Below are positions 1 through 12,136 of a stretch of DNA of 12,136 bases, piece by piece. Each line of letters opens with the position of its first letter. Position 1 is the stretch's first letter. The translations under genes were made by a program, and so were the position numbers. This DNA is from a virus (Duplodnaviria; Heunggongvirae; Uroviricota; Caudoviricetes), in the IMG/VR virus record IMGVR_UViG_2711768053_000017, positions 1-12,136 of that record. One strand, written 5' to 3'. The notes under the pieces were generated by a model, which was given only the letters and a program-made list of their open reading frames with translations, was not told where the DNA came from and did not search any database.

Positions 1-252
1 TTACCATATTTCGTCACCCGCAGGGGTGGATTTACCCCAGACATCCTGCTCGCTAAGTTCCGCGGCGTTCATGTCACACTGTGCCAGCAGTTCATCAAGC
101 GAGTAGCGCCTGGAGATGGGTGTCAGAATCAGTTGGTTGTTGCTCACCTGCGCTTCCACGCTCTGCCCCGGCTGTAAGTTAAGTTCTTTCATTACGATAT
201 TGGGAATGACCATACCTGCACTGTTCCCCCATCTTTTTATGGTAATACGCAT
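1..252 (-). CDS. chpS: MazE/ChpS-family antitoxin (AbrB/SpoVT-fold), 83 aa; toxin partner expected left of the window
   Basis: Translation MRITIKRWGNSAGMVIPNIVMKELNLQPGQ...YSLDELLAQCD...GDEIW matches my recollection of E. coli ChpS and carries the MazE-family KRWGNS motif. AAGGAGG Shine-Dalgarno lies about 6 nt upstream of the ATG at 252; the GTG at 258 in the ORF track sits directly on the SD and is unlikely to be the start. Stop codon is at 1-3. Confidence 0.7.
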   Translation of the reverse strand: MRITIKRWGNSAGMVIPNIVMKELNLQPGQSVEAQVSNNQLILTPISRRYSLDELLAQCDMNAAELSEQDVWGKSTPAGDEIW

Positions 253-266
253 CTGCACCTCCTTAA

Positions 267-283
267 GTTATACAAAGTATAAC
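267..283 (-). promoter_or_regulatory. Perfect 17-bp palindrome GTTATAC-AAA-GTATAAC overlapping a TATACT -10-like hexamer just upstream of the antitoxin RBS; candidate autoregulatory operator/promoter of the TA operon
   Basis: Inverted repeat with 7-bp arms seen directly in the sequence; on the minus strand it reads GTTATACTTTGTATAAC and is followed by TTAAGGAGG and the ATG. MazE-family antitoxins autoregulate through palindromes at their promoters. Confidence 0.35.
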
Positions 284-479
284 TCACGGTGCTACAGGAA
301 ACGTTTTACCCCTGCGCATTTGTGAACGCCAGCAGAGTTTTTTATGCGTTAACAGATATGGAAAGCGGCTCGGAGAGAAAAGCAAAGGGTGAGGGAATTA
401 CAAAACAGAATGCGAGTCGTCTCGCAAAAAACAACGCCACCCGAAGGTGACATGAAGGAGACCGAGCACACTGGCCTCC

Positions 480-542
480 CTTCGATATATCAATTAGTTA
501 CATTAATACACATAGTCTTAACTAGGCTTATTTAGTCCTATT
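480..542. other. Candidate attL / integration junction: AT-rich segment immediately downstream of the integrase stop codon
   Basis: In P2-type phages att lies directly beyond the 3' end of int. The segment is AT-rich, and 525-533 (GGCTTATTT) is the reverse complement of AAATAAGCC, which resembles part of the P2 att core as I remember it. That recollection is uncertain and no second copy (attR) is available in the window. Confidence 0.2.
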
Positions 543-1538
543 TTATGGGCAATATCTGGACAACTCAGCCACAGGATTAAAGCGCACAGCATCCTGCAGA
601 TAATCCGGTGCAAAATGGGCATAAGTCATCGTCTGCTGAATAGTGCTATGCCCAAGTATTCTCTGCAAAGTGATGATATTCCCGCCATTAATCATGAAGT
701 GAGTGGCAAAGGTATGCCGTAAAACATGTATCGACTGCCCTTCAGGAAGATCGGGCCTCACCTTTCTGATAGCCGTTCTGACAGCGGCATAACTCGGATA
801 AATTAAACGACCAGTAGCCTTAGTCTTAATCATGCACTCCAGTTCTGACGATATAGGTATAACGCGACGCTTCCCATTTTTTGTTTCCATAAAAATGACT
901 TTGCCGCTAATAACATGCTCCCCCTTGATATTTGCAACTTCACTCCATCTTCCACCTGTTGCCAGACACAACAAGACGGCTTTTAATTCATCACCAGATA
1001 ACAACTCCAGTAATCGTGGAATATCTTCATGATACAAATAAGCCATTTCAGGCTGTTTGATATTAAGTTTTTTCACATCATGAAACGGATTAACCCCAGA
1101 ATATTCCTCTGCGTCAATTAGTTTTGTGAAGAAACCACTCATCATTGCGCAATAACGATTAACCGTGGATTGTTTTATTCCGCGGTTAAGCAACAATAAC
1201 CGATAATTAATTATGTTCTTACGAGTAAGTTGGTCACTGCGTGTAACATTAATACTTTCAAGATCACTAATGACCGCAGAAATACGCACTCGCTCCATCG
1301 CACCGTAAGGATGGTTTTTCCCATGGTATAGCCACCAACAATCCAGCAACTCCCTCAGCGAGCGCCGTTCTGTTGGCTTATCAACCCAGTCTTTGTCGTG
1401 GTAATGCTGCAATACATGACGCTCATACAAAACAGCCTCACCACGAGTATCAAATCGCCGCCTGAATCTCTTTCCTTCTGATCCAGCAGGCCGCACGTCC
1501 ACACAAAATTTGCCATTAGCGAGCTTCTTAATCGACAT
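543..1538 (-). CDS. int: Tyrosine recombinase / phage integrase, P2-type, 331 aa
   Basis: Translation MSIKKLANGKFCVDVRPAGSEGKRFRRRF...LRHTFATHFMINGGNIITLQRILGHSTIQQTMTYAHFAPDYLQDA closely parallels P2 Int (arm-binding N-terminus, R...HxxR...Y catalytic signature). GGAGGG SD lies 7 nt upstream of the ATG at 1538; the longer ORF from 1574 lacks an SD. Confidence 0.9.
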   Translation of the reverse strand: MSIKKLANGKFCVDVRPAGSEGKRFRRRFDTRGEAVLYERHVLQHYHDKDWVDKPTERRSLRELLDCWWLYHGKNHPYGAMERVRISAVISDLESINVTRSDQLTRKNIINYRLLLLNRGIKQSTVNRYCAMMSGFFTKLIDAEEYSGVNPFHDVKKLNIKQPEMAYLYHEDIPRLLELLSGDELKAVLLCLATGGRWSEVANIKGEHVISGKVIFMETKNGKRRVIPISSELECMIKTKATGRLIYPSYAAVRTAIRKVRPDLPEGQSIHVLRHTFATHFMINGGNIITLQRILGHSTIQQTMTYAHFAPDYLQDAVRFNPVAELSRYCP

Positions 1539-1604
1539 AAGGAAGCCCTCCAATGAAAACATCATCTTGATCACAGCTCTGGGAAATAAATGCCTGGTGA
1601 ACCG

Positions 1605-1898
1605 TTAACCAGTTTTCTTGCCGGAGCGGGATGATTCCGCTTCGCCTTGCCCAATGTGTGCGAGAGCCGGTACAACCTGCCCGGCCTTGGGTTCAACTTC
1701 ATCAAACAGAAACCAGTCGCGGTATTTAGAAAATCTCGGGTGCTTGAAAAGCTTGATAGTGATCTCGAGGCCAGGAAGGTTACGACCATACTCATAACTG
1801 GTCAGAGCAGAATAAGAAATTCCAATCATATCAGCGAATTCCCGCTGAGTGAGATCTTCAGATTTGCGCATGACGCGAATTTTTTGAGGAATGTCCAT
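1605..1898 (-). CDS. C: Immunity repressor, P2 C-type (HTH), 97 aa
   Basis: Translation MDIPQKIRVMRKSEDLTQREFADMIGISYSALTSYEYGRN...PALAHIGQGEAESSRSGKKTG parallels P2 C (..LMRKSE..L....G..Y..LS.YE.GR...PALAHFGQNETTSPHSGQKTG). AGGAG SD lies 8 nt upstream of the ATG at 1898; it sits downstream of int on the same strand as in P2. The ORF-track start at 1970 is an unsupported N-terminal extension. Confidence 0.85.
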   Translation of the reverse strand: MDIPQKIRVMRKSEDLTQREFADMIGISYSALTSYEYGRNLPGLEITIKLFKHPRFSKYRDWFLFDEVEPKAGQVVPALAHIGQGEAESSRSGKKTG

Positions 1899-1940
1899 TT
1901 GACAAACTCCTACATATGTGTAGATTAACACCACATATGA
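1899..1940 (+). promoter_or_regulatory. Candidate early rightward promoter (Pe-like) with two direct-repeat operator half-sites flanking the -10
   Basis: Consensus -35 TTGACA (1899-1904), 16-nt spacer, -10 TAGATT (1921-1926). 8-bp direct repeats TACATATG (1911-1918) and CACATATG (1932-1939), 21 bp apart, flank the -10. That is the operator layout described for P2 C repressor, which binds two direct repeats flanking the Pe -10. Confidence 0.5.
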
Positions 1941-2012
1941 ACAGCAAACAAATGTTCTAAGTGGTTCCAACTAGTGCCAATTAGAAAGAGCACCAATGGC
2001 GGAGGATATCAG

Positions 2013-2438
2013 ATGCAAGAAAGCACTCAAAACGCGCCTGAGTCACTTTGCGGAACACGATGCGATCGCCTGTCAGAAATGCCAGAAGGGGAGCATCAAA
2101 AAACAGAACGCAAAGCACGTGAACGTGAAGAAATTCGACTTTCAGAAAATCCCTCGCATCTCCTGTCAAAAGAAGGATTTGCGCTGTATATCGGCAAAAC
2201 AGTTAGCGCCATTGTGAGCATGGCTAAAGCAGGGAAATTGCCAGCCGTGTATATGGCAGACCCTCTTAGGCCAGGAGGAAACGCTGAACTCTACATCAAC
2301 AGAAAAGCGTGGGATGAAGCATGTGATCGCTTGATCGAAAACGCTCCGCAGGAATGGCATGACTGGGAAAACCGCCTGTTTTTATTTAAGCCGACACATA
2401 GCGAACGAAGCAGAACTAAAAAAGCGAGGGCCGCATGA
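2013..2438 (+). CDS. cox: Cox-like excisionase / transcriptional switch protein, 141 aa (alternative start 2079 gives 119 aa)
   Basis: The stretch LLSKEGFALYIGKTVSAIVSMAKAGKLPAVYMADPLRPGGNAELYINRKAW parallels P2 Cox (..YQEFAKLIGKSTGAVRRMIDKGKLPVIDMTDP...GEYWVYLPAWN). GGAGG SD at 2001-2005 is 7 nt before the ATG at 2013. It is first in the rightward operon, divergent from C. Roughly 35-50 N-terminal residues exceed P2 Cox, so the true start is uncertain. Confidence 0.7.
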   Translation: MQESTQNAPESLCGTRCDRLSEMPEGEHQKTERKAREREEIRLSENPSHLLSKEGFALYIGKTVSAIVSMAKAGKLPAVYMADPLRPGGNAELYINRKAWDEACDRLIENAPQEWHDWENRLFLFKPTHSERSRTKKARAA

Positions 2439-2476
2439 TTGCTTTATTGTTAACACATTATTTTCGTCGCCGTTAT

Positions 2477-2506
2477 TTCAAACACGGGCAGTTAGTGGGC
2501 TATATC
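2477..2506 (+). promoter_or_regulatory. Weak candidate sigma70 promoter ahead of the AT-rich cassette
   Basis: TTCAAA (2477-2482), 18-nt spacer, TATATC (2501-2506), about 37 bp upstream of the ATG at 2543. Match to consensus is only moderate. Confidence 0.25.
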
Positions 2507-2542
2507 ACACTGCCTGAATGAGTTAAAAGAGGTAACAGTAGA

Positions 2543-3151
2543 ATGAATCACAAAAATAAAGCGCTACTGGAACGACTGGAAACCCTGAAAAACGAAAAAC
2601 CACACCAGAAGCTTTTGCTGGTTTTTCCGGGCAAACCACAGGTTGAAATCAGCATTGACTACCACGAATTACACAGAACGTTCGCTGACCTGATGGCATT
2701 TAAATCAAAGCTTCAGAATGGCGAAGATTTGAAAGATGCCACCCTGCATCCCGACGATGAATACGGCCATTTTTGTCGGGATAACGCAAAGGGAACGTTC
2801 GGATTGGTTTTAGAACCAGTATGCGGCGTCATGCTCAGGTTTCCTGCCGAAGAAGCATTTGAACTTTATCGACAGATTATGGATGACGAATCAATGCTCA
2901 TTAAAGAAACAGCAGACTGTACATGCGCTAACACTAAACCGTACATTTATGCTGGCTCATACACTGATGAAGAACTGATAAATTTTTTGGAAACCGTTGT
3001 AGCAGAATTGAAATGCCGCAACAGGTTACCACTAAGACAACAACAATTACGGCATGAGTTAGAGGCCTACCAGGCTGAAATAGATAGAAACAATGAGTTT
3101 CTTAATTCAGTCGTGTATCGGCAGGATAAAAATCCCAAGCAGAATCCTTAA
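2543..3151 (+). CDS. Hypothetical protein, 202 aa, in AT-rich accessory cassette
   Basis: Long ORF with AAAGAGGT SD about 9 nt upstream of the ATG; no family recognised by eye. Noticeably AT-richer than the flanking phage backbone. Confidence 0.6.
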   Translation: MNHKNKALLERLETLKNEKPHQKLLLVFPGKPQVEISIDYHELHRTFADLMAFKSKLQNGEDLKDATLHPDDEYGHFCRDNAKGTFGLVLEPVCGVMLRFPAEEAFELYRQIMDDESMLIKETADCTCANTKPYIYAGSYTDEELINFLETVVAELKCRNRLPLRQQQLRHELEAYQAEIDRNNEFLNSVVYRQDKNPKQNP

Positions 3152-3569
3152 AGTGCAACAGACTTTCATCTTCATAACTTAAATCAGGCATTGGAGATGA
3201 GAGCTCGTGCTTATAAAGAATCTGGATACGCTCGGATACATGCTCTGGTATTACATATGCATTAATATCATTCCAGAGAACAATAAGTATGTCATGGAGA
3301 CACATATTTTTGGCATCAGACAATGAAACACCCTTTTGGGTGAAAAGATAATGATAAAGCACATTTTTTCCGAAGAGGACTACACACTTGGAATCAATAT
3401 TTCTTCGATACTCGACAAGTAGCAAATCCAATTTAAGGAGAATTAATGCTCGAGTAGCAACAAATGCTGAGTTGGCTGTTTCTTTATCCAGCACATCACG
3501 ATAGGATTCAGCAACTCGCTCGCAGTGTTTTTCAAAAATTCGCAGACACACAAAAGCATCTAATTCCAT
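3102..3569 (-). CDS. Hypothetical protein, 155 aa, convergent with and overlapping the 3' end of the 2543-3151 gene by 50 bp
   Basis: AAGGAG SD 6 nt upstream of the ATG at 3569 (MELDAFVCLRIFEKHCERV...). The ORF-track extension to 3722 is a Cys-rich low-complexity stretch without an SD, so the shorter start is preferred. No recognisable motif. Confidence 0.6.
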   Translation of the reverse strand: MELDAFVCLRIFEKHCERVAESYRDVLDKETANSAFVATRALILLKLDLLLVEYRRNIDSKCVVLFGKNVLYHYLFTQKGVSLSDAKNMCLHDILIVLWNDINAYVIPEHVSERIQILYKHELSSPMPDLSYEDESLLHFKDSAWDFYPADTRLN

Positions 3570-3710
3570 AACAACTCCTTTGTGGTTGGTTAAACACGCG
3601 CCCTTTACAGCCCCTTCAAGACTGCGGGCGGTGGAAAAATACCACAAAACCATGCGCCGGGCATGGCTAAAACCCGGCACAAATTCGCAACAGCAGCAGG
3701 ATATTTTTGT

Positions 3711-4061
3711 ATGAAGCAACAACGAAATTCTTCACAGCAACGCTTCCGCAACGGGGCGGAACGCCACGCTAACCGTTTCGCCACCAGTGCATCACGCAGC
3801 AGCTCTCGCTACAGCCTGAGCGAAACACACGCCACACCTGATGGCCATCCCGTAAAACAAATTGGTGAACACACCTGGCTGATTGAGAAGGCTGGAATCG
3901 TGGTCCACAAATGCCCGCGCAATCCGTTCACCGGAAACCGCATTTTTGAACTGATCAGCGGCGACAATCACCTCGGGCAGGATTTCACATTGTACGAAGC
4001 ACTACGCACGGTTGATCGTCTGCTTCGCGGGCAAAATTTTATTAAACAGACTGATTTATAA
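3711..4061 (+). CDS. Hypothetical protein, about 116 aa (start uncertain; 3663 is the alternative)
   Basis: ORF with a plausible globular C-terminal half (…WLIEKAGIVVHKCPRNPFTGNRIFELISGDNHLGQDFTLYEALRTVDRLL…), but the N-terminal part is S/R-rich and neither candidate ATG has a convincing SD. Confidence 0.4.
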   Translation: MKQQRNSSQQRFRNGAERHANRFATSASRSSSRYSLSETHATPDGHPVKQIGEHTWLIEKAGIVVHKCPRNPFTGNRIFELISGDNHLGQDFTLYEALRTVDRLLRGQNFIKQTDL

Positions 4062-4071
4062 CAGGTGCTTT

Positions 4072-4350
4072 ATGACTAAAGACCATACTCAAGGTGTATT
4101 TATCCGCTTTATTGATTCTCGCGGTGAACTGTTATTGCGTGCATCAGCTATTAATGGTGTAGCCCAGACAAAAGACGCAACCACTCATATTTATTTGGAC
4201 AGCACCGCACAACTGATCGTGGAGCTTCCGTACCAGACTGTACGTGAAGTCATTAGCGAAGCTGAAAAGGCACGTCAGATTAATAGCGATGAACCATACA
4301 TCGAAATTATCTGCATGGATTCAAAAACAGAAATCCAGAAGACAGATTAA
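4072..4350 (+). CDS. Hypothetical small protein, 92 aa
   Basis: ATG at 4072 preceded by AGGTG with a short spacer; it starts 10 nt after the previous stop, consistent with an operon. No family recognised. Confidence 0.5.
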   Translation: MTKDHTQGVFIRFIDSRGELLLRASAINGVAQTKDATTHIYLDSTAQLIVELPYQTVREVISEAEKARQINSDEPYIEIICMDSKTEIQKTD

Positions 4351-4361
4351 AGGGCGTTGTG

Positions 4362-4604
4362 ATGGATAAAGAATATAAAACTCTCGTCAATAAAGCACTT
4401 GAGCGTTTTCATTTTCGCTTAAGCGCATCAGGCACTCATGCTGAGCTCGCAGCCCGAGAGTCATTGACCAGGGCCATCAAGAGTATATACGACACGGCTT
4501 TTTACATTGACGATCCGGACGCACTCGACGAGCTTTCCATACTCGTCTGCGCCGCAGAAAACGGGCATCACATTGAACCGTATAACCTGGGGAGTATCGC
4601 GTGA
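4362..4604 (+). CDS. Hypothetical small protein, 80 aa
   Basis: ATG at 4362 with AAGGG about 7 nt upstream; tightly spaced after the previous gene. No family recognised. Confidence 0.5.
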   Translation: MDKEYKTLVNKALERFHFRLSASGTHAELAARESLTRAIKSIYDTAFYIDDPDALDELSILVCAAENGHHIEPYNLGSIA

Positions 4605-4714
4605 GCATATTTATTTCATGGCTTGTTCTGATTATTTCGGTGGCCTGCGCCATTGGGATTATGCGAATTATTCATTCAGTAAAAAAGATTGAACGCTTTT
4701 TCACTGGTGAATAA
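4601..4714 (+). CDS. Small hydrophobic single-TM peptide, 37 aa, not in the ORF track (below its length cutoff)
   Basis: GTG start at 4601 overlaps the upstream stop (GTGA) and is preceded by GGGGAG 6 nt upstream. Translation (M)SIFISWLVLIISVACAIGIMRIIHSVKKIERFFTGE is one predicted transmembrane helix followed by a basic tail. Confidence 0.4.
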   Translation: MSIFISWLVLIISVACAIGIMRIIHSVKKIERFFTGE

Positions 4715-4807
4715 CAGCACAAATAAAACACCAGATTAAATAAGAAAACGTGAAAACCATCCGTATTAACGGAGGTATTCGCACACGCAAATAACGGAGA
4801 TACAAAA

Positions 4808-5218
4808 ATGCACGCAAAAGAAGAAGGTATCATCAGAGCACTGAAAGAAATTTCAAAGACAGAAAACGAAGTAGCGAAAAAAGCCATAGCAAATAATCAT
4901 ATGGACGTCGCAACCCACACACTGATAGTCGCAAGAGTTACGGCAGAAGCAGCCGAAATTATCGCAAAACAGGATGCTGAACTGGCGGTTCTCAGAACAC
5001 AACCAATCACCGGGCTGGATTTGTCTAACACCGGACGCCTTATTTACACAATTGGCTCGGAGCTACAGCGATACACCATTATCGCCGGATTACAGGATAA
5101 ATACCTGATCACTCCTCACCCCATAAGGGAATCAGAAATTCTGACAAATCTCCGCCTGATAGAGCGCTCTCAAGTCGCATTCATTGATGACGCACAGCGC
5201 ACCGCATTTAACGCATAG
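4808..5218 (+). CDS. Hypothetical protein, 136 aa
   Basis: ATG with ACGGAG SD about 8 nt upstream; clean ORF with ordinary composition; no family recognised. Confidence 0.55.
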   Translation: MHAKEEGIIRALKEISKTENEVAKKAIANNHMDVATHTLIVARVTAEAAEIIAKQDAELAVLRTQPITGLDLSNTGRLIYTIGSELQRYTIIAGLQDKYLITPHPIRESEILTNLRLIERSQVAFIDDAQRTAFNA

Positions 5219-5236
5219 GGTTACTGGACAAAAAAA

Positions 5237-5245
5237 GGGGGGGGG
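5237..5245. repeat. Homopolymeric G9 tract (preceded by A7) 2 nt upstream of the start codon of the 5248 operon
   Basis: Counted directly: A at 5230-5236, G at 5237-5245, then CA and the ATG at 5248. The tract doubles as the only purine-rich SD-like element for this start codon. Confidence 0.9.
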
Positions 5246-5247
5246 CA

Positions 5248-5451
5248 ATGGCAATTAAGCGTTTTTCCGTCATTCGTTTCGCATCCAGAGGGCGTGAATA
5301 CGAAGTTGACGAACGGCTGATTAAAACGCTCGACCGTCACCGTTCGCAACCTGACGCGCATCACATTTATCTCACTGACGACACTTACTTCTGCGCCACC
5401 AACGTGGTGCAGGTGAACCTTATCCGACACGTACAGGAGTCACGCAGATGA
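5248..5451 (+). CDS. Hypothetical small protein, 67 aa; first gene of a translationally coupled four-gene operon
   Basis: ATG directly after the G9 tract; its stop overlaps the next start (ATGA). No family recognised. Confidence 0.5.
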   Translation: MAIKRFSVIRFASRGREYEVDERLIKTLDRHRSQPDAHHIYLTDDTYFCATNVVQVNLIRHVQESRR

Positions 5452-5666
5452 ACAGAAGGAGAATTACACGCAGACATCGCCGTACACGCCTGAGCTCCCC
5501 GCCAACACTAAAGGGACTCATTCAAAGCGAGATCGGTGATTTCTTCGCTGGATTTGGATCACCTGGCGAACCAGAAACACCTGAAGCGATGCAGCGCGAA
5601 CTCATGATGCGCATCGATAACGTTTTTGACTTTTTCCTGAATAACAAAAGAGAGCAACCGACATGA
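5448..5666 (+). CDS. Hypothetical small protein, 72 aa, with a strongly basic N-terminus (MNRRRITRRHRRTR)
   Basis: ATGA overlap with both the upstream and the downstream gene supports real, coupled translation. Confidence 0.5.
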   Translation: MNRRRITRRHRRTRLSSPPTLKGLIQSEIGDFFAGFGSPGEPETPEAMQRELMMRIDNVFDFFLNNKREQPT

Positions 5667-5875
5667 ACGAAAAGACCTGGTTTCGCGCATACATGTGGGC
5701 GCTGGTATGCGTCCTCGTCTCTATCATTCTGTATGCAGGACTACTCCCCCGAATGATCTCATCAGACAGCTCCTTCCTGGTATTGCTGGGCATTTTTGTT
5801 GCCTTGCTGTACCCGGCGGGCGTTGTCCGCTTTTTCAGTAACTACATCAAAGCAATTATGGAAACCAAACAATGA
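5663..5875 (+). CDS. Small integral membrane protein, 70 aa, two predicted TM helices
   Basis: Hydrophobic segments AYMWALVCVLVSIILYAGLL and FLVLLGIFVALLYPAGVV; ATGA overlaps on both sides. It sits immediately upstream of the SPFH gene, like the NfeD-type membrane partners of SPFH proteins. Confidence 0.6.
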   Translation: MNEKTWFRAYMWALVCVLVSIILYAGLLPRMISSDSSFLVLLGIFVALLYPAGVVRFFSNYIKAIMETKQ

Positions 5876-6696
5876 AAAAACTATTACCACTCATCCCTCT
5901 CCTGATGACCACACTTCTGGTTGGCTGTGACCGCGTGGAGCCGGGCAATGTAGGCATCAAAGTCAACAAACTGGGCGACGATAAAGGCGTCGGTGAAGTG
6001 GTTGGCGTTGGTCGCTACTGGACAGGCTGGAATACCGAGGTTTACATCTTCCCGACCTTCAAACAAATGAAGACCTACGATGAGCCGTTCAGCTTTCAGA
6101 TGAGTGACGGCACAACCATCGGCTATCACATCGGTGTAGCCTACAAGGTTGATCCATCCAAAGTTACTACAGTGTTTCAGACCTACCGCAAAGGCGTGGA
6201 CGACATTACCGACACTGACCTGCGCCAGAAGATCGCCGATGCACTCAACCGACTGGCCAGCAAAATGACCACCGATAAGTTTATCGACGGTGGTAAGTCT
6301 GAACTGCTGGATTCAGCACTTAAAGACATTCAGGCAGAAATGACACCTATCGGCATTCAGGTAATGAGCCTCTCTTATGTCGGTAAACCGGAATACCCGC
6401 CAACCGTGATCGACAGCATTAATGCCAAAGTCACAGCGAACCAGAAAACCCTGCAACGCGAACAGGAAGTCAAGCAACGCGAAGCAGAAGCCAACATGCT
6501 GCGCGCAGAAGCTGCCGGACAGGCTGATGCCATTCGCACAAAAGCCCAGGCTGAAGCCGACGCCATTCGTTTACGCGGTGAAGCTCTGCGCCAGAATCCC
6601 GGCGTTATGGAGCTGGAAGCAATCAACAAATGGAACGGCACGCTGCCGCAATACATGACCAGCAATACCGCTGTTCCGTTTGTTCCGGTGAAGTAA
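5872..6696 (+). CDS. SPFH/band-7 (HflC/stomatin/prohibitin-like) lipoprotein, 274 aa, predicted inner-membrane anchored
   Basis: N-terminal signal peptide with lipobox LLVGC followed by Asp at +2 (inner-membrane retention signal). The C-terminal Ala/Glu-rich coiled-coil (LRAEAAGQADAIRTKAQAEADAIRLRGEALRQNP...LEAINKW) resembles the HflC/HflK C-terminal region. ATGA-coupled to the upstream membrane protein. Confidence 0.65.
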   Translation: MKKLLPLIPLLMTTLLVGCDRVEPGNVGIKVNKLGDDKGVGEVVGVGRYWTGWNTEVYIFPTFKQMKTYDEPFSFQMSDGTTIGYHIGVAYKVDPSKVTTVFQTYRKGVDDITDTDLRQKIADALNRLASKMTTDKFIDGGKSELLDSALKDIQAEMTPIGIQVMSLSYVGKPEYPPTVIDSINAKVTANQKTLQREQEVKQREAEANMLRAEAAGQADAIRTKAQAEADAIRLRGEALRQNPGVMELEAINKWNGTLPQYMTSNTAVPFVPVK

Positions 6697-6702
6697 TTAA
6701 AC

Positions 6703-6748
6703 CCGGCCAGCGAAAATCGCTGGCCGGAGCAGTATCAGGATTTTTTTT
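6703..6748 (+). terminator. Candidate rho-independent terminator after the SPFH operon
   Basis: Perfect 10-bp stem CCGGCCAGCG / CGCTGGCCGG with a 5-nt loop (6703-6727), starting 7 nt after the stop codon, followed by a T8 run at 6741-6748. The T-run is 13 nt from the stem, which is non-canonical. Confidence 0.4.
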
Positions 6749-6775
6749 AGTATGCCGTTCTCACAAAAAAACCGC

Positions 6776-6886
6776 TTGCCATGCCGCAATCAGTCAGGTT
6801 ACATTTCCGCTGCACCTCATAAAACGGGTGCCGGGATTTCCACCCCGCTGACAACCAAAGCGCACAACCGCGCCAGCGGTTTTTTT
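6776..6886 (+). promoter_or_regulatory. Candidate promoter plus hairpin/T7 element: possible short transcript (about 75 nt) or attenuator-type leader
   Basis: TTGCCA (6776-6781), 18-nt spacer, TACATT (6800-6805); downstream a stem CCGCTG (6845-6850) / CAGCGG (6874-6879) enclosing an inner GCGC-N6-GCGC hairpin, followed directly by T7 (6880-6886). Confidence 0.25.
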
Positions 6887-7065
6887 GTGCGTACCGTATC
6901 GCCACGTCTTTTTCGCACACGAATTATGGTGGGGCGTATGGGGCCGACTTCGGTCGGGCCGGGTTCTTTGGTTGCCGGTTGTGGAAACCCTGTACGTCTC
7001 ACCACCCCGAGTTTTCCACCTCTGGATGGTGAGTTTTCAAAACTTACAACCAAAGAGGCCACACC

Positions 7066-7296
7066 ATGGCAAACCGCAAACAGCACCGCGCTATCGCGGA
7101 GCGTCGTCACATCCAGACTGAAATCGACCGCAGACTCACCCGCGCTGCACACATCGCCTTTATCATGCAATCCAACACATTGCACAGACTCAACAGCACT
7201 ATTTCAGCCGACTACTGCGCCGCTGTATTCAGCTATCTGGCGGAAGACCTCCTGTCTCTTCAGGACCTTATCCAGCAGCAAAACAAACTCCATTAA
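7066..7296 (+). CDS. Hypothetical small protein, 76 aa, basic N-terminus (MANRKQHRAIAERRHIQTEIDRR)
   Basis: AAAGAGG SD 7 nt upstream of the ATG; the sequence reads as a genuine protein, unlike the overlapping 206-aa ORF at 6752-7372. Confidence 0.55.
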   Translation: MANRKQHRAIAERRHIQTEIDRRLTRAAHIAFIMQSNTLHRLNSTISADYCAAVFSYLAEDLLSLQDLIQQQNKLH

Positions 7297-7368
7297 TTCC
7301 TGTTCCGGGCCTTTCCTGCACCTTGCGGCGGGAGGCCTTCGCACATCTGTAACAAGAGGATTGCCGCA

Positions 7369-7734
7369 ATGATTCTCGCCAACGACTTTCTTGAATACCT
7401 GCTCAATACAGAGCGTGATCTTGCCGTTCGCGTGCGTGACCGTTATGACATGTACCTGAAATCCCTGCCTGTACCGCAGCTCGCTGACGGAAAGATTGTT
7501 ATTGATGGTCGCTACATGATCGACAGCCATGAGGGAAATTACAGGCTTTACCGCATTGAAGGTGGCACCCCGTCCGTTATTGGCATTTACCAGCGCCCAT
7601 CCTCTGCAATCGTCGATGTGATTGCCGACAGCATCCGCATCACACATCGCCATGCCGACACAGAAGACACCGTGCTGGAAATTCAGCGTCTGGCTGCCGT
7701 TTGCCGTGACACCCTGAACGGTATGACGAAGTAA
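7369..7734 (+). CDS. Hypothetical protein, 121 aa, immediately upstream of gene A
   Basis: AAGAGGA SD 8 nt upstream of the ATG; its stop is 6 nt before the gene A start. No family recognised. Confidence 0.6.
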   Translation: MILANDFLEYLLNTERDLAVRVRDRYDMYLKSLPVPQLADGKIVIDGRYMIDSHEGNYRLYRIEGGTPSVIGIYQRPSSAIVDVIADSIRITHRHADTEDTVLEIQRLAAVCRDTLNGMTK

Positions 7735-7740
7735 ATCAGT

Positions 7741-10563
7741 ATGACGACAGAGTACATCAGGGACTGGCAACAACCACGCCACGCAGTAGGGCGTGAAGGT
7801 ACGGGGATCCCCGCACCTGAATCCGCGCTTTCCTCCTGGCTGGATGCCTACCGGGTAGAGAACGAGCGCCGCCAGGAAATGGCTGATGCGGCGTTCTCCG
7901 CCACGCCGCTGGGCAACCTGATTAATAAAAGCCTGGACGCACAGGAAAAACAGGACAAAACCATCACACTGGCAGGAGACGCCAGAAAACAGGCACGCGG
8001 CGCGCTGGATGAAGCCATGGCCTCGCTGCGCCTGCTGCCGTCCTATCTGCGCGATCCGCTTATTCGCCACCTCTCCTTCCTGCGCAAAAAACAGGAAGCC
8101 GATCGCCGGAAAGGCAAAAAGAGCTGGCAGGCGGAACGCTATGCACGCGGAACCCTGCGCAAAATATTCGAACGTCTGGATCGCACTGACGGACGCTGGC
8201 TGACACCGGGTTATCGCTCCCTTGCCGGACGCGAACGCCTGGACGATTTGCTGTACCTGCCGCAGCTCAACAAACACCAGATACAGACACTGGCCACCAT
8301 GACGGCGGCAATGTTCAGCAGCACCTTCGAGACACTCTGCGATGGCTTTGGCGCGACCGATGGTGAGCTGACCATGGAAGTGGCGCTGAAGACGTATCAG
8401 ATGCTGGCCCGAATGGCGTTACACCTGCACGCCATTCCGCCACATTATGACGCACTGACAACAGATAAAGACCGGAGGAACGAACCGGACACGGAGCTGC
8501 TGCCGGGCGCAATCCTTCGCCTGACCTGTGCGGAATGGTGGAAACGCAAACTGTGGCTGTTACGTTGCGAGTGGAGAGAAGAACAACTCCGCGCCGCCTG
8601 TCTGGTTTCCAGAAAAACATCACCCTATCTGAGCCAGGACGCGTTAAGCGAGTTTCGCGCACAGCGCGAGAAAACACGCGATTTTCTGAAAAGTTTCATG
8701 CTGGAAAACGAAGACGGGTTCACGATTGATCTCGAGACAGTGTATTACGCGGGAGTAAGTAACCCGGTTCACCGTAAGGCAGAAATGATGGCCACCATGA
8801 AGGGGCTGGAACTTCTGGCCGAAGCCCGTGGCGACAAAGCGGTGTTTCTGACTGTCACTACCCCTTCGAAGTACCACGCAACAACGGAGAACGGTCATCC
8901 GAACCCCAAATGGAACGGGGCCACCATGCGCGATTCCAGCGATTACCTGGTTAACACGTTTTTTAAGGCGGTCCGCAAAAAACTGAACCGCGACGGCCTG
9001 CGCTGGTATGGCATTCGCACGGTGGAGCCTCACCATGACGGCACCGTGCACTGGCACATGATGGTCTTTGCACATCCTGAAGAAATCGACAGCATCGTGG
9101 ACATCACCCGTGATATTGCCATTCGCGAAGACCGCCACGAGCTGGGCGATGACATAACTCCGCGTTTTAAGGCAGAGTACGTCGACGGTTCGAAAGGTAC
9201 GCCGACCAGCTACATCGCCACCTACATCGGAAAGAACCTGGACAGCCGCGCCGTGGATGGCATTGACCCGAAAACAGGCAAACCGCGCATCGACGACGAA
9301 TCAGGAAAGACGATGGCAGAAAGCGTGGAACGCGCCATCGGCTGGGCGCGCCTTCACCGGGTCCGCCAGTTCCAGTTCTTTGGCATCCCCTCCCGTCAGG
9401 TGTGGCGTGAACTGCGCCGCCTTGCCTGTCAGATGGCACGTAACCCACAGGGACCGCAACGTCTGGAAAATGACGCAATGGATGCGGTTCTTGCTGCCGC
9501 TGATGCCGGATGTTTTGCCACCTACATAGAGAAACAGGGCGGCGTGCTTGTTCCACGCAAAGACTACCTGATTCGCACCGCCTACGACCTCGCAGATGAG
9601 CTGAACGATTACGGCGAACAGAGCGTACAGATTTACGGGATCTGGTCACCACTCATCGGGGAATCCTCCCGTGTGTGCACGCATCCGGATAACTGGAAGC
9701 TGGTAAGACGCAAACCGGAAGCGGAAGACAGCGCCCGCGAAAATGGTTTTGACCTTCAGGGCGGCCCTGCCGCCCCTTGGACTCGTGGCAATAACTGTCC
9801 CCGTGTACAGGAAACGGACAACAACGGGACAGAACAGCCGGAAGAACGGCCAGCACCGTGGCCGCAGCTTCCTGACGGCGTTGATGTGGATGAATGGATG
9901 CGCTCACTGAAACGGCACGAACGCCGGGCGCTGATGCGTTCGCTTCGTGACAAACAGGCAAAAAACATCAGTGATGAAATGCAGAACTGGACACAGAGCC
10001 GCAAACAGCCACAGCCTTTGCCTGATAACCACGAGTTACTCGCTAAAGAATGGCGGGAGTCTGCTGAATCTCTCGGCCTGCATATCGGTGAACAGCAGAT
10101 GCAGCACCTGTTACGGGGCGGCAGTCTGTACGTTGACGGCAGCATCATTGCACCGCAGGGATTTGAAATTGTACGCAAACCGGATACCCGCCCGGACAGC
10201 CGAATCACGCAGCTCTGGCAACGCCTGAGCCGTAACCACGGCGTAAGCAGCACGGAGATCCGCCATAACCCGGTCGCCAGCTATCTGGAACAACTAGGGG
10301 CATCAGACCCCGAAGCCGCCGCACGCCTGGCATCCACACTTCAGCAGGACCAGAACACCATGAAAACCCCCGTTACCGTGCTTTCTGACATGCTGCGCGC
10401 CATCCGCGACGCAGAGCACGCACAGAGAATCAGTGAAACCACTGAACGCGCCCACCGCAAAGCAGACCTGCTGCGGGGTAGCCTGACCAGTGGAAACAAA
10501 AAACAGACAGAAACGGGATTCACAAATCCCGTAAATGAGCAAAAAACGTGCCATAAAACATGA
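7741..10563 (+). CDS. A: Rolling-circle replication initiator, P2 gpA family (HUH endonuclease), 940 aa
   Basis: HUH motif VEPHHDGTVHWHMMVF (H-W-H at 9049-9057) and twin catalytic tyrosines YIATYIGKN (Y codons at 9211 and 9223), as in P2 gpA (VEPHHDGTPHWHMM, YIAKYISKN). The start at 7741 has a weak SD and may be coupled to the upstream gene. Confidence 0.9.
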   Translation: MTTEYIRDWQQPRHAVGREGTGIPAPESALSSWLDAYRVENERRQEMADAAFSATPLGNLINKSLDAQEKQDKTITLAGDARKQARGALDEAMASLRLLPSYLRDPLIRHLSFLRKKQEADRRKGKKSWQAERYARGTLRKIFERLDRTDGRWLTPGYRSLAGRERLDDLLYLPQLNKHQIQTLATMTAAMFSSTFETLCDGFGATDGELTMEVALKTYQMLARMALHLHAIPPHYDALTTDKDRRNEPDTELLPGAILRLTCAEWWKRKLWLLRCEWREEQLRAACLVSRKTSPYLSQDALSEFRAQREKTRDFLKSFMLENEDGFTIDLETVYYAGVSNPVHRKAEMMATMKGLELLAEARGDKAVFLTVTTPSKYHATTENGHPNPKWNGATMRDSSDYLVNTFFKAVRKKLNRDGLRWYGIRTVEPHHDGTVHWHMMVFAHPEEIDSIVDITRDIAIREDRHELGDDITPRFKAEYVDGSKGTPTSYIATYIGKNLDSRAVDGIDPKTGKPRIDDESGKTMAESVERAIGWARLHRVRQFQFFGIPSRQVWRELRRLACQMARNPQGPQRLENDAMDAVLAAADAGCFATYIEKQGGVLVPRKDYLIRTAYDLADELNDYGEQSVQIYGIWSPLIGESSRVCTHPDNWKLVRRKPEAEDSARENGFDLQGGPAAPWTRGNNCPRVQETDNNGTEQPEERPAPWPQLPDGVDVDEWMRSLKRHERRALMRSLRDKQAKNISDEMQNWTQSRKQPQPLPDNHELLAKEWRESAESLGLHIGEQQMQHLLRGGSLYVDGSIIAPQGFEIVRKPDTRPDSRITQLWQRLSRNHGVSSTEIRHNPVASYLEQLGASDPEAAARLASTLQQDQNTMKTPVTVLSDMLRAIRDAEHAQRISETTERAHRKADLLRGSLTSGNKKQTETGFTNPVNEQKTCHKT
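10513..10532. promoter_or_regulatory. 20-bp palindrome ACGGGATT-CACA-AATCCCGT, copy 1, inside the last codons of gene A
   Basis: Perfect 8-bp inverted arms seen directly in the sequence; an identical-arm second copy lies 73 bp downstream. Confidence 0.5.
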
Positions 10564-10585
10564 AGTGCGCGCAAAACAGGCAAAA

Positions 10586-10605
10586 ACGGGATTTCAGAAT
10601 CCCGT
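10586..10605. promoter_or_regulatory. 20-bp palindrome ACGGGATT-TCAG-AATCCCGT, copy 2, 35 bp upstream of the parM-like start; candidate ParR operator / centromere-like site
   Basis: Identical 8-bp arms to copy 1 and similar flanks (aaACGGGATT....AATCCCGTaaa). Spacing of 73 bp is about 7 helical turns. A TAATTA -10-like hexamer (10613-10618) follows. Confidence 0.5.
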
Positions 10606-10639
10606 AAACGATTAATTAATCAACATAAGGAAAAGCGAC

Positions 10640-11599
10640 ATGAAAATTTGTATCGACGACGGCTCCACCAACATAAAGCTGGCATGGACTGAGAACGGCA
10701 AACGCCGCAACGCCATCAGCCCGAACAGCTTCAAGTCGGAATGGTCTGCGCCGTTCGGTGGCACGCAGCCCGCGAACTACATGCTTGATGGCGTGCGCTA
10801 TGGTTTTGATCCGGTCAGCGATCGCTTTGTCCAGACGACCGACACGCAATACCAGTACAGCGATGTGAATGTCATTGCCATTCATCATGCGCTGGTCAAA
10901 TCAGGCATCACGCCACAGGAGGTGGATGTGGTTGTCACCCTGCCACTGAGCGAGTATTTCGACACAAACGCACAGCCGGACATGGCCAACATCAACCGCA
11001 AAAAAGCGAACGTTATGCGCCCGGTGGAGTACCAGAACGGCGAGGCATTCACTATCCGTAACGTGCGGGTTATGCCTGAATCCATTCCGGCTGGCTTTAA
11101 AGCACTGGCTGACATGAGTCCGTTTGAATCCCTGCTGATTGTGGATTTGGGCGGAACCACGCTGGATGTGGCAAAGGTTCAGGGGCAACTGGCAGGTATC
11201 AGCCAGGTGTTTTGCGATCCACACGTAGGCGTTTCTCTGATGGCTGATGCCGTGCTGTCGGTGATGGCCACTAACGGTATGCGTACCAGTCACCACATCG
11301 CCAATACCATTATTGAGCACCGTCACGATGAAGCCTGGCTACGCCAGCACATTCACAATGACGCGCATTACAACAGCCTGATGGCGGTTATTCGTGAAAA
11401 GGAGGAGACACTGAAACAACGCGTGATCCGCGCGCTGGCGGGTTTTTCGGGTTACGGGCGGGTGATGGTTGTAGGTGGAGGAGCGGAGATTGTGGCACCC
11501 GCTATCCGCGAAGCCTGCGGAGTTAATGCGACTTTCATCGCGGACGGGGTGCCACAGTTTGCTCTGGTTAATGGGCTGTACGCAATGGATAAGGAGTAA
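10640..11599 (+). CDS. parM: ParM/StbA-family actin-like ATPase, 319 aa
   Basis: N-terminus MKICIDDGSTNIKLAW matches the ParM signature (R1 ParM MLVFIDDGSTNIKLQW). Further shared blocks: SPNSFK, YSDVNV..HHAL, TLPLSEYFD, NRKKAN, VMPESIPAGF, LLIVDLGGTTLDV, GVSL, VGGGAE, LVNGLY. Length matches ParM (about 320 aa). AAGGAAAAG SD upstream. Confidence 0.85.
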   Translation: MKICIDDGSTNIKLAWTENGKRRNAISPNSFKSEWSAPFGGTQPANYMLDGVRYGFDPVSDRFVQTTDTQYQYSDVNVIAIHHALVKSGITPQEVDVVVTLPLSEYFDTNAQPDMANINRKKANVMRPVEYQNGEAFTIRNVRVMPESIPAGFKALADMSPFESLLIVDLGGTTLDVAKVQGQLAGISQVFCDPHVGVSLMADAVLSVMATNGMRTSHHIANTIIEHRHDEAWLRQHIHNDAHYNSLMAVIREKEETLKQRVIRALAGFSGYGRVMVVGGGAEIVAPAIREACGVNATFIADGVPQFALVNGLYAMDKE

Positions 11600-11603
11600 A
11601 TCA

Positions 11604-11918
11604 ATGACGACACCAACCAGACGAATAAGTTTCTATCTGAAGCCCGCCGTCGTCAAGAGCGAACGGGAGGCGTGCAGTTACCTCGACAGCCTGCCAGCCT
11701 CCGAACGCAGCCGCGCACAACGCGCGGCTTTTCTGGCTGGACTGGCTCTTATAAAACGCGCCCCCGCGTTGGCGTATTCGCTGGCAGAATGGTCAGAAGA
11801 CGAAATACGAATGCCACCGCCACCAGTACAGCCTGAAAAACCGGCGCAACCAGCAGCAGACAGCGCCCCCCATATGCAGCAGGTGAAAAAGAATATTCAG
11901 GCGTTTTTCCCGAAGTGA
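11604..11918 (+). CDS. parR: ParR/StbB-like small DNA-binding protein (likely ribbon-helix-helix), 104 aa
   Basis: RRISFYLKPAVVKSEREACSYLDSLPASERSRAQRAAFLAGLALIKRAP parallels the R1 ParR N-terminus as recalled (RRTIAFKLNPDVNQTDKIVCDTLDSIPQGERSRLNRAALTAGLALYRQDP). AAGGAG SD 7 nt upstream, 4 nt after the parM stop. The ORF-track extension from 11475 overlaps parM in another frame and is rejected. Confidence 0.65.
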   Translation: MTTPTRRISFYLKPAVVKSEREACSYLDSLPASERSRAQRAAFLAGLALIKRAPALAYSLAEWSEDEIRMPPPPVQPEKPAQPAADSAPHMQQVKKNIQAFFPK

Positions 11919-11932
11919 AAACAGGAGTAACT

Positions 11933-12136
11933 ATGTCCACCATTACCAAAGAATGGTTACAACGTAAAATCACAGAGTTTAAATCGTGGCGCGAAGACAT
12001 CCCGTTCGGTCTTGATGAAGACGATCACAATATGTTAATCGCACTGGAAATTGCACTTGCATCACTGGAAGCAGAGCCAGTGGCATGGATGCACGCAAAT
12101 AATCCTATTGGAATACCGGCGATAACAAGAAGTAAA
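11933..12136 (+). CDS. Hypothetical protein, 5' part only (68 codons, runs off the window)
   Basis: CAGGAG SD 5 nt upstream of the ATG at 11933; open reading frame MSTITKEWLQRKITEFKSWREDIPFGLDEDDHNMLIALEIALASLEAEPVAWMHANNPIG continues to the window end. No confident family assignment. Confidence 0.45.
   Translation, partial: MSTITKEWLQRKITEFKSWREDIPFGLDEDDHNMLIALEIALASLEAEPVAWMHANNPIGIPAITRSK

Follow-up and report, generated by a model that had tools for sequence, protein, structure and literature searches.

A 12,136-nucleotide stretch of a tailed-phage genome (IMG/VR record IMGVR_UViG_2711768053_000017, positions 1 to 12,136; hereafter the window) carries, straight after the gene of the replication endonuclease gpA, a parM-parR pair that, together with two palindrome-containing repeats on its 5' side, makes up what we read as a type II (ParMRC) segregation cassette (Table 1). 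By megablast, the nearest phages are P88-like (genus Xuanwuvirus, Peduoviridae; 92-96% nucleotide identity), and in P88 itself the genes run in the order gpA, parM, parR, a few small genes, and then portal and terminase on the opposite strand. The explanation that we favour, and to which we would assign as a whole a probability of about 0.55, holds that the cassette is functional, that it is inherited vertically within the replication module of P88-like phages, and that it acts on phage circles outside the chromosome at times when the early operon is active. We stress that the identity of the cassette is much more certain than the timing of its action and the benefit that it would bring.

Partition proteins and candidate cis-acting sites

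Pfam recognized both domains of the 319-residue ParM over nearly the entire length of their profiles (StbA_N: 4e-82, 274 bits, cut-off 24.6, profile positions 1-157 of 158; ParM C-terminal domain: 1.4e-68, 230 bits, cut-off 27.4, positions 1-159 of 159), with a further ALP_N match (only 1.4e-5) remaining under the cut-off, and the crystal chains of R1 ParM (1mwk) could be aligned end to end (E 9e-93, 46.7% identity over 315 residues). Thus, the full-length ParM/StbA homologue that a preliminary description of the window had placed after gpA was recovered, as were the ATPase motifs it had proposed to check: phosphate-1 DDGSTNIK (residues 6-13), phosphate-2 DLGGTTLD (169-176), PESIPAG (146-152, the region of the catalytic Glu) and the adenosine motif GGGAE (279-283), all in register with R1 ParM. 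When ParM was aligned with seven others, all four nucleotide-binding motifs were found to be invariant across the eight phage and plasmid homologues, down to 52% identity. We consider that ParM, as judged by its sequence, is an intact actin-fold ATPase.

The second gene, which the same description had called ParR/StbB-like, encodes 104 residues with a clear match to Pfam Plasmid_stab_B (1.2e-24, 86 bits, cut-off 25) and a weak one to the StbB/ParR structure of pB171 (2jd3; E 0.011, residues 6-61); in PHROGs, ParM and ParR are simply labelled as partition proteins. Its coordinates required correction, as the GTG at 11475 from which it had previously been drawn is internal to parM, an artefact of the open reading frame (ORF) listing. 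The start is instead the ATG at 11604, situated on the same strand 4 bases past the parM stop codon and preceded by an AAGGAG Shine-Dalgarno sequence within the end of parM, and the resulting length equals that of the RefSeq annotation in near-identical prophages.

Aligned with its counterparts from other phages, from D6 and from plasmid pETEC_35, ParR divides into a ribbon-helix-helix N-domain (TRRISFYLKP ... QRAAFLAGLAL), a linker that varies and a C-terminal tail that is conserved (KKNIQAFFPK). Its alleles fall into two N-domain types and have a hypervariable, Pro/Gln-rich linker (at least 8 unrelated versions); despite this hypervariability, all phage ParR alleles, and one plasmid ParR as well, keep N-(I/A)-x-x-(L/F)-(F/L)-P at the C-terminus, while the DNA-contacting beta-strand and the last ~10 residues are unchanged among the E. 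coli alleles. In R1, the C-terminus of ParR is the peptide that binds ParM. ParR is predicted to be an intact ribbon-helix-helix adaptor, the gene of which is tightly juxtaposed to parM.

The gpA stop codon and the parM ATG are separated by a 76-bp gap, and at this junction a 39-nt unit is directly repeated (82% identity between the two copies, whose starts are 73 bp apart), each copy containing a 20-bp palindrome of the form ACGGGATT-N4-AATCCCGT. The pair straddles the gpA stop codon, and the last ~20 codons of gpA are encoded by repeat 1 of the cassette. The pattern CGGGAT-N6-ATCCCG occurs twice in the window, at these sites alone (0.03 occurrences expected by chance), and no further good copy of the palindrome was found elsewhere in the P88 genome. 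Its outer GGGA/TCCC bases are nearly invariant in 73 unique relatives. Farther afield, prophages of Hafnia and Plesiomonas (ParM identity 62-63%) have two GGG-N10-CCC sites, 72-73 bp apart, on the 5' side of parM, and those of Serratia and Enterobacter (ParM identity 54-58%) have a different, large inverted repeat. The sites covary with the beta-strand of ParR, which reads TRR(I/V)SFYL in E. coli, Hafnia and Plesiomonas and NRKISFYL in Serratia and Enterobacter.

The Enterobacter sites adjoin parM yet lie more than 1 kb away from gpA, and in seven loci without the cassette the homology to the window extends no farther than 10447-10516, reaching the first palindrome or falling just short of it, and a different and shorter gpA tail follows. 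Considering that the palindromes are deleted together with parMR and track parM in Enterobacter, the repeats belong to the partition block and not to gpA; the same observations led us to reject their interpretation as a gpA origin or as gpA-associated sites. Gain and loss affect the repeats, parM and parR as one unit, and it is the two repeats that qualify best as a candidate parC or operator. Folding the RNA across the junction between gpA and parM (both strands) was uninformative, since the strong z-scores only reflect the palindromes pairing with each other, and a plus-strand RNA element at the palindromes was discarded as well (a few G-U-compatible variants, and no compensatory changes among the population variants).

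Lineage linkage, selection and the border of the defence hotspot

The cassette was detected in 1303 of the 5426 complete E. coli genomes (~24%), in which its 1443 copies are divided between chromosomes (1441) and plasmids (2), and two or three copies per chromosome are frequent. Within phages, its occurrence follows a single gpA lineage. A gpA homologue is encoded in 384 out of 50,697 phage records, and just 14 of these contain ParM, all with a P88-type gpA (at least 80% identical to that of the window); expressed by lineage, the cassette is present in 14/14 phages with P88-type gpA and in 0 of about 370 with another gpA. The sole further ParM among the phage records belongs to D6, a P1-like plasmid prophage (47.5% identity). 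The pair is hence not a universal core component of P2-family genomes, which the preliminary description had named as a refuting outcome.

An IMG/VR sample picked by gpA sequence alone yielded 74 loci with enough downstream sequence, where parM was full-length (65 loci), partial (2) or missing (7: L111, L113, L116, L135, L138, L147 and L172). In the cassette-less loci, which are natural deletion variants useful for comparison, gpA is directly followed by minus-strand cargo (a 454-aa ORF in L172, a three-gene set in L111).

Pairwise ratios of nonsynonymous to synonymous substitution rates (dN/dS), computed for the 73 unique sequences, amounted to 0.054 in parM, 0.22 in the adjacent 3' end of gpA and 0.30 in the N-terminal half of parR, and the parM ORF was intact in all but one of these sequences (72/73), the remaining one having a stop codon. 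Both parM and parR are kept by purifying selection, which is strong in the case of parM.

The order gpA, parM-parR, cargo and portal recurs in prophages of Hafnia, Plesiomonas, Serratia and Enterobacter at 54-63% ParM identity (for these distant genera, the contexts come from hits of a protein search that were located on their contigs). The ParMs carried by phages form one group in a neighbour-joining tree; the subclades E. coli-Hafnia-Plesiomonas and Serratia-Enterobacter each received full bootstrap support (200/200), whereas their union was recovered in 93 of 200 replicates, and a single ancient acquisition of the phage ParM is thus not established. Two ParMs fall outside the phage group, at ~50% identity (one in an integrated plasmid, the other in a conjugative element), and the closest plasmid ParMs are ~52% identical. 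A ParM scan of species-representative genomes returned three near-identical loci only.

The gpA-gpQ interval of P2-like phages, in which P2 carries tin and old, is a documented hotspot concentrating defence systems (PMC9122126; PMC13586616), and the position that the preliminary description had assigned to the pair, after gene A and in the interval of tin/old, is accordingly correct. The view of the pair as variable cargo of this hotspot did not hold: it is near-fixed with one gpA lineage (67/74), and variation starts after or within parR. Nucleotide similarity to most relatives stops at a homology breakpoint at 11756, inside parR, and the 1.2 kb downstream of parR displayed 25 unrelated arrangements among 75 loci. 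The breakpoint suggests that recombination at ~11756 exchanged the 3' half of parR together with the hotspot cargo (loci L012-L091), and in combination with the 25 arrangements it indicates that the hotspot begins at the 3' half of parR, with parMR as its constant left border. Nor does the module continue past 11933, as had been thought possible, since its conserved part ends at 11918 and the ORF at 11934 is present in a minority of relatives; the region of this ORF corresponds to PHROG families of unknown function and gave no PADLOC match. ParMR thus sits, like tin/old and other gpA-gpQ cargo, between gene A (replication) and gene Q (portal), but while such cargo is highly variable and often defensive, ParMR is constant in its lineage and lacks a defence-family match. 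For annotation purposes, the defence hotspot of the P88-like lineage should be delimited from parR rather than from gpA.

Mode of action and competing explanations

According to the explanation that we favour, ParR dimers would bind the two palindromes, the conserved C-terminal tail of ParR would capture growing ParM-ATP filaments, and the filaments would push circular copies of the phage genome apart. The cassette would be transcribed with the early (Pe) operon, together with gpA: positions 10300-10640 yielded neither a sigma-70-like promoter nor a plus-strand terminator (in a crude consensus search that could miss a ParR-regulated promoter and is a weak negative, which tells against this part of the explanation), so that parMR is probably read from the early promoter. 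Transcription of this kind would make the cassette active only on extrachromosomal DNA (i.e. post-infection, or post-excision while gpA makes monomeric circles), with no expression of parMR from a prophage that is integrated and repressed; chromosomes often hold two or three copies of the cassette, and a cassette kept off in lysogens would be in keeping with this. P2-type replication yields monomeric circles, and such circles may represent plasmid-like substrates for a ParMRC spindle. The benefit would probably consist in distributing or positioning the circles so that both daughter cells get a copy before integration, or in the spatial organisation of replication and packaging. Only tentatively, and at odds short of even, do we propose the bolder version, in which an integrating tailed E. 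coli phage with rolling-circle replication employs a bona fide ParMRC spindle, with a minimal two-site centromere, as a viral cytoskeleton that parts newly made monomeric circles in the brief extrachromosomal phase, so that both daughters of an infected cell could turn into lysogens or replication and packaging would be ordered in space; the segregation machine would then serve a virus instead of a plasmid.

Among known systems, the ParMRC of R1 and IncF plasmids (parA/stb) has the same order (cis sites, parM, parR), shares all nucleotide-binding motifs and has a ParM that is 46.7% identical over its full length; likewise, its ParR belongs to the same Pfam family as the phage ParR, of which the C-terminal N-x-x-x-L-F-P tail recurs in the ParR of plasmid pETEC_35. 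The parC of R1 is built of ten 11-bp iterons flanking a promoter. Unlike in R1, the phage cassette follows immediately on the gene of a rolling-circle initiator in a tailed phage that integrates, its candidate centromere comprises two 20-bp palindromes 73 bp apart, and no promoter of its own was detected between gpA and parM. The StbA/StbB pair of phage D6 is a phage-borne member of the same family (its annotators noted the similarity to P88 StbA), but D6 is a 91-kb extrachromosomal prophage in need of partition, while the present phage integrates by means of a tyrosine recombinase and is more than 99% chromosomal.

The best functional analogy is offered by AlpAC of the Corynebacterium glutamicum prophage CGP3, an integrated prophage that encodes an actin-like filament former and a DNA-binding adaptor. 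AlpAC is needed for efficient replication of the circular phage DNA; the adaptor is co-transcribed and binds sites upstream of the operon (the AlpA/AlpC/alpS system), and both genes are expressed early upon induction (PMC4446434). This precedent for the organisation of phage DNA replication in an integrated prophage speaks for our favoured explanation, although AlpAC is not a sequence relative, differs in host phylum, phage type and gene order, and the present pair is a true ParM/ParR.

Several points weigh against the favoured explanation. The presence of only two sites, as opposed to the ten iterons of R1 parC, makes centromere function uncertain, the inner and loop bases of the palindromes are about as variable as synonymous sites in the 73 unique relatives, and both palindromes also score as minus-strand intrinsic terminators. 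Furthermore, as 7 of the 74 prophages with P88-type gpA are devoid of it, the cassette is not essential for prophage carriage. When the cassette acts and how it would raise fitness are matters of pure inference, and in the literature we found no functional study of the cassette beyond a one-sentence remark.

Alternatively, the cassette could confer a dual lifestyle, by letting P88-like phages persist as low-copy circular episomes besides or instead of integrating. The cassette is, after all, a complete plasmid-type partition system, of the family used by the D6 plasmid prophage, and one PLSDB record (NZ_CP148288.1, L003; from a cat E. coli isolate) is a 34,461-bp circle in which a whole P88-like genome is filed as a plasmid. 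We nevertheless deem this alternative unlikely, and phage-plasmid behaviour, the first possibility raised by the preliminary description, is poorly supported as the usual lifestyle, given that 1441 of the 1443 copies in complete E. coli genomes are chromosomal. The window copy itself is integrated beside chpS with an intact integrase, and the other five of the six PLSDB records with ParM are large replicons (228 kb to 1.4 Mb), of which the single one inspected is an IncC plasmid whose prophage copy is rearranged and IS26-flanked. As for the 34,461-bp record, it is cut ~18 nt from the att core, as an assembler yields from an excised or bubble-resolved prophage, and no contiguous attP junction of its type was found in the complete E. 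coli genome records by a search that was not exhaustive (it would miss a junction divided by the start of a record). The simpler reading of this record is hence a prophage that was excised or resolved by the assembler; closed at the att site, the circle is an excised form that was captured or else a rare episome. Phage-plasmids are normally separate replicons and have a plasmid-type initiator or copy control, and neither trait was found here (the initiator having been checked in the window and P88). No plasmid-type replicon was seen, the replication protein of the window and P88 being the rolling-circle gpA only, which appears to be part of a repressor-controlled early operon.

That the cassette is an acquired passenger with little or no present function, and its palindromes leftward transcription terminators, strikes us as highly improbable. 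Such a reading would account for the 7 of 74 prophages with P88-type gpA that lack the block, for the broken parM or parR in phage record 503458 and a few loci, and for the fit of both palindromes to the minus-strand terminator pattern. It is at variance with the dN/dS of 0.054 and the ORFs intact in 72 of 73 unique sequences, with synteny held across genera at 54-63% protein identity, and with the conservation of every nucleotide-binding motif and of the ParR tail. Moreover, the Plesiomonas sites keep GGG-N10-CCC where a stable hairpin is impossible, which argues for protein binding over termination.

Least probable of all is a co-option of the actin-like pair for defence or exclusion against incoming phages or plasmids (e.g., through partition incompatibility or mislocalised foreign DNA), a suggestion of the preliminary description that gained no support: although the defence systems of P2-like phages are concentrated in the interval that houses the cassette (PMC9122126, PMC13586616), and although ParR occurs with two N-domain alleles and a hypervariable linker, at a dN/dS (0.30) above that of parM, neither protein has a PADLOC family match at E <= 0.01, the cassette stays constant among close relatives while the adjoining cargo turns over (25 arrangements in 75 loci), the dN/dS of parM (0.054) reflects purifying rather than diversifying selection and is unlike that of typical arms-race genes, and no E. 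coli allele of ParR departs from the others in the DNA-contacting strand or the C-terminal tail, the variation being confined to the linker and therefore not expected to change specificity.

The observation and the main hypothesis of the preliminary description are already published. Rousset et al. (2022) reported a putative partition system in about a quarter of P2-like phages and suggested plasmid maintenance, the phiSM paper names a ParR-type gene solely as a fitness factor (PMC6456863), and RefSeq/PGAP already label the products 'plasmid segregation protein ParM' and 'plasmid partitioning/stability family protein'. What is added here comprises the parR start, the candidate two-site parC, the boundaries of the unit gained or lost, the linkage to a gpA lineage, a measure of how strongly parM is selected, the mosaicism of parR, the hotspot border and the near absence of episomal copies.

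With ~24% of complete E. coli genomes holding a segregation cassette within a prophage, the role of the cassette is an easily testable question in a very common and tractable group of phages, even if it comes as no surprise to specialists. Known phage cytoskeletons include PhuZ of jumbo phages and AlpAC of CGP3. If the cassette indeed acts on replicating or pre-integration circles, phage-encoded cytoskeletons would extend to a small, tractable E. coli phage, and a naturally minimal ParR-parC complex would be on offer. Chromosomal 'plasmid segregation protein' calls of this kind mark P88-like prophages and not integrated plasmids.

Genomic surroundings and further observations

By its overall content (ORF listing and Pfam), the window covers the left arm of a prophage of the P2 family, inserted in a chromosome of Escherichia type. 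The prophage adjoins a presumed chpS-like gene (chpBI antitoxin) at the left window edge.

Table 1. Features of the window, with positions counted from its first nucleotide.
Feature	Position	Strand	Basis and remarks
chpS-like antitoxin gene (presumed)	1-258	minus	left window edge
tyrosine integrase	543-1574	minus	ORF listing, Pfam
C-type repressor	1605-1970	minus	ORF listing, Pfam
cox	1974-2438		ORF listing, Pfam; followed by small early genes
SPFH lipoprotein	5872-6696		ORF listing, Pfam
isrK Hfq-binding RNA	6812-6886	plus	Rfam, 64 bits
C4 antisense RNA	6922-7009	plus	Rfam, 80 bits; directly after isrK
gpA replication endonuclease, 940 aa	7741-10563	plus	Pfam Phage_GPA, 2.1e-129
repeat 1, candidate parC/operator	10500-10538		within the last gpA codons; contains 20-bp palindrome ACGGGATTCACAAATCCCGT (10513-10532)
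repeat 2, candidate parC/operator	10573-10611		in the 76-bp gap; contains palindrome ACGGGATTTCAGAATCCCGT (10586-10605), 34 bp 5' of the parM ATG
parM, actin-like partition ATPase (predicted), 319 aa	10640-11599	plus	Pfam, R1 ParM structures, motifs
parR, ribbon-helix-helix centromere-binding adaptor (predicted), 104 aa	11604-11918	plus	Pfam Plasmid_stab_B
first hotspot-cargo ORF	11934-12136	plus	cut by the window end; outside the partition cassette; shared by ~10 of ~85 related loci

The C-terminal third of gpA (window 9700-10563) looks lineage-specific, as tblastn alignments to other P2-family gpA proteins end at around residue 690-860, and in Hafnia the counterpart of this region is a separate 167-aa ORF located between gpA and parM. 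Towards the left, positions 1-7740 were covered to at least 80% in one complete E. coli genome only (~94% identity). The closest E. coli copy of the parMR region, found in strain K_EC180, is integrated beside pheA/pheL and has a different integrase region.

A 226-kb contig labelled Vagococcus sp. WN89Y (NZ_JBQPOM010000071.1, L007) contains the same E. coli-type prophage region, with a ParM of 97% identity, and its Firmicute label probably stems from assembly contamination or mislabelling.

The isrK and C4 RNAs are located just upstream of a 76-aa ORF (7066-7296) that occupies the position of the annotated derepression protein of P88. C4 is the immunity RNA family of P1 and P7, and the arrangement of isrK, C4 and the 76-aa ORF suggests an RNA-controlled antirepressor module in a P2-type phage.

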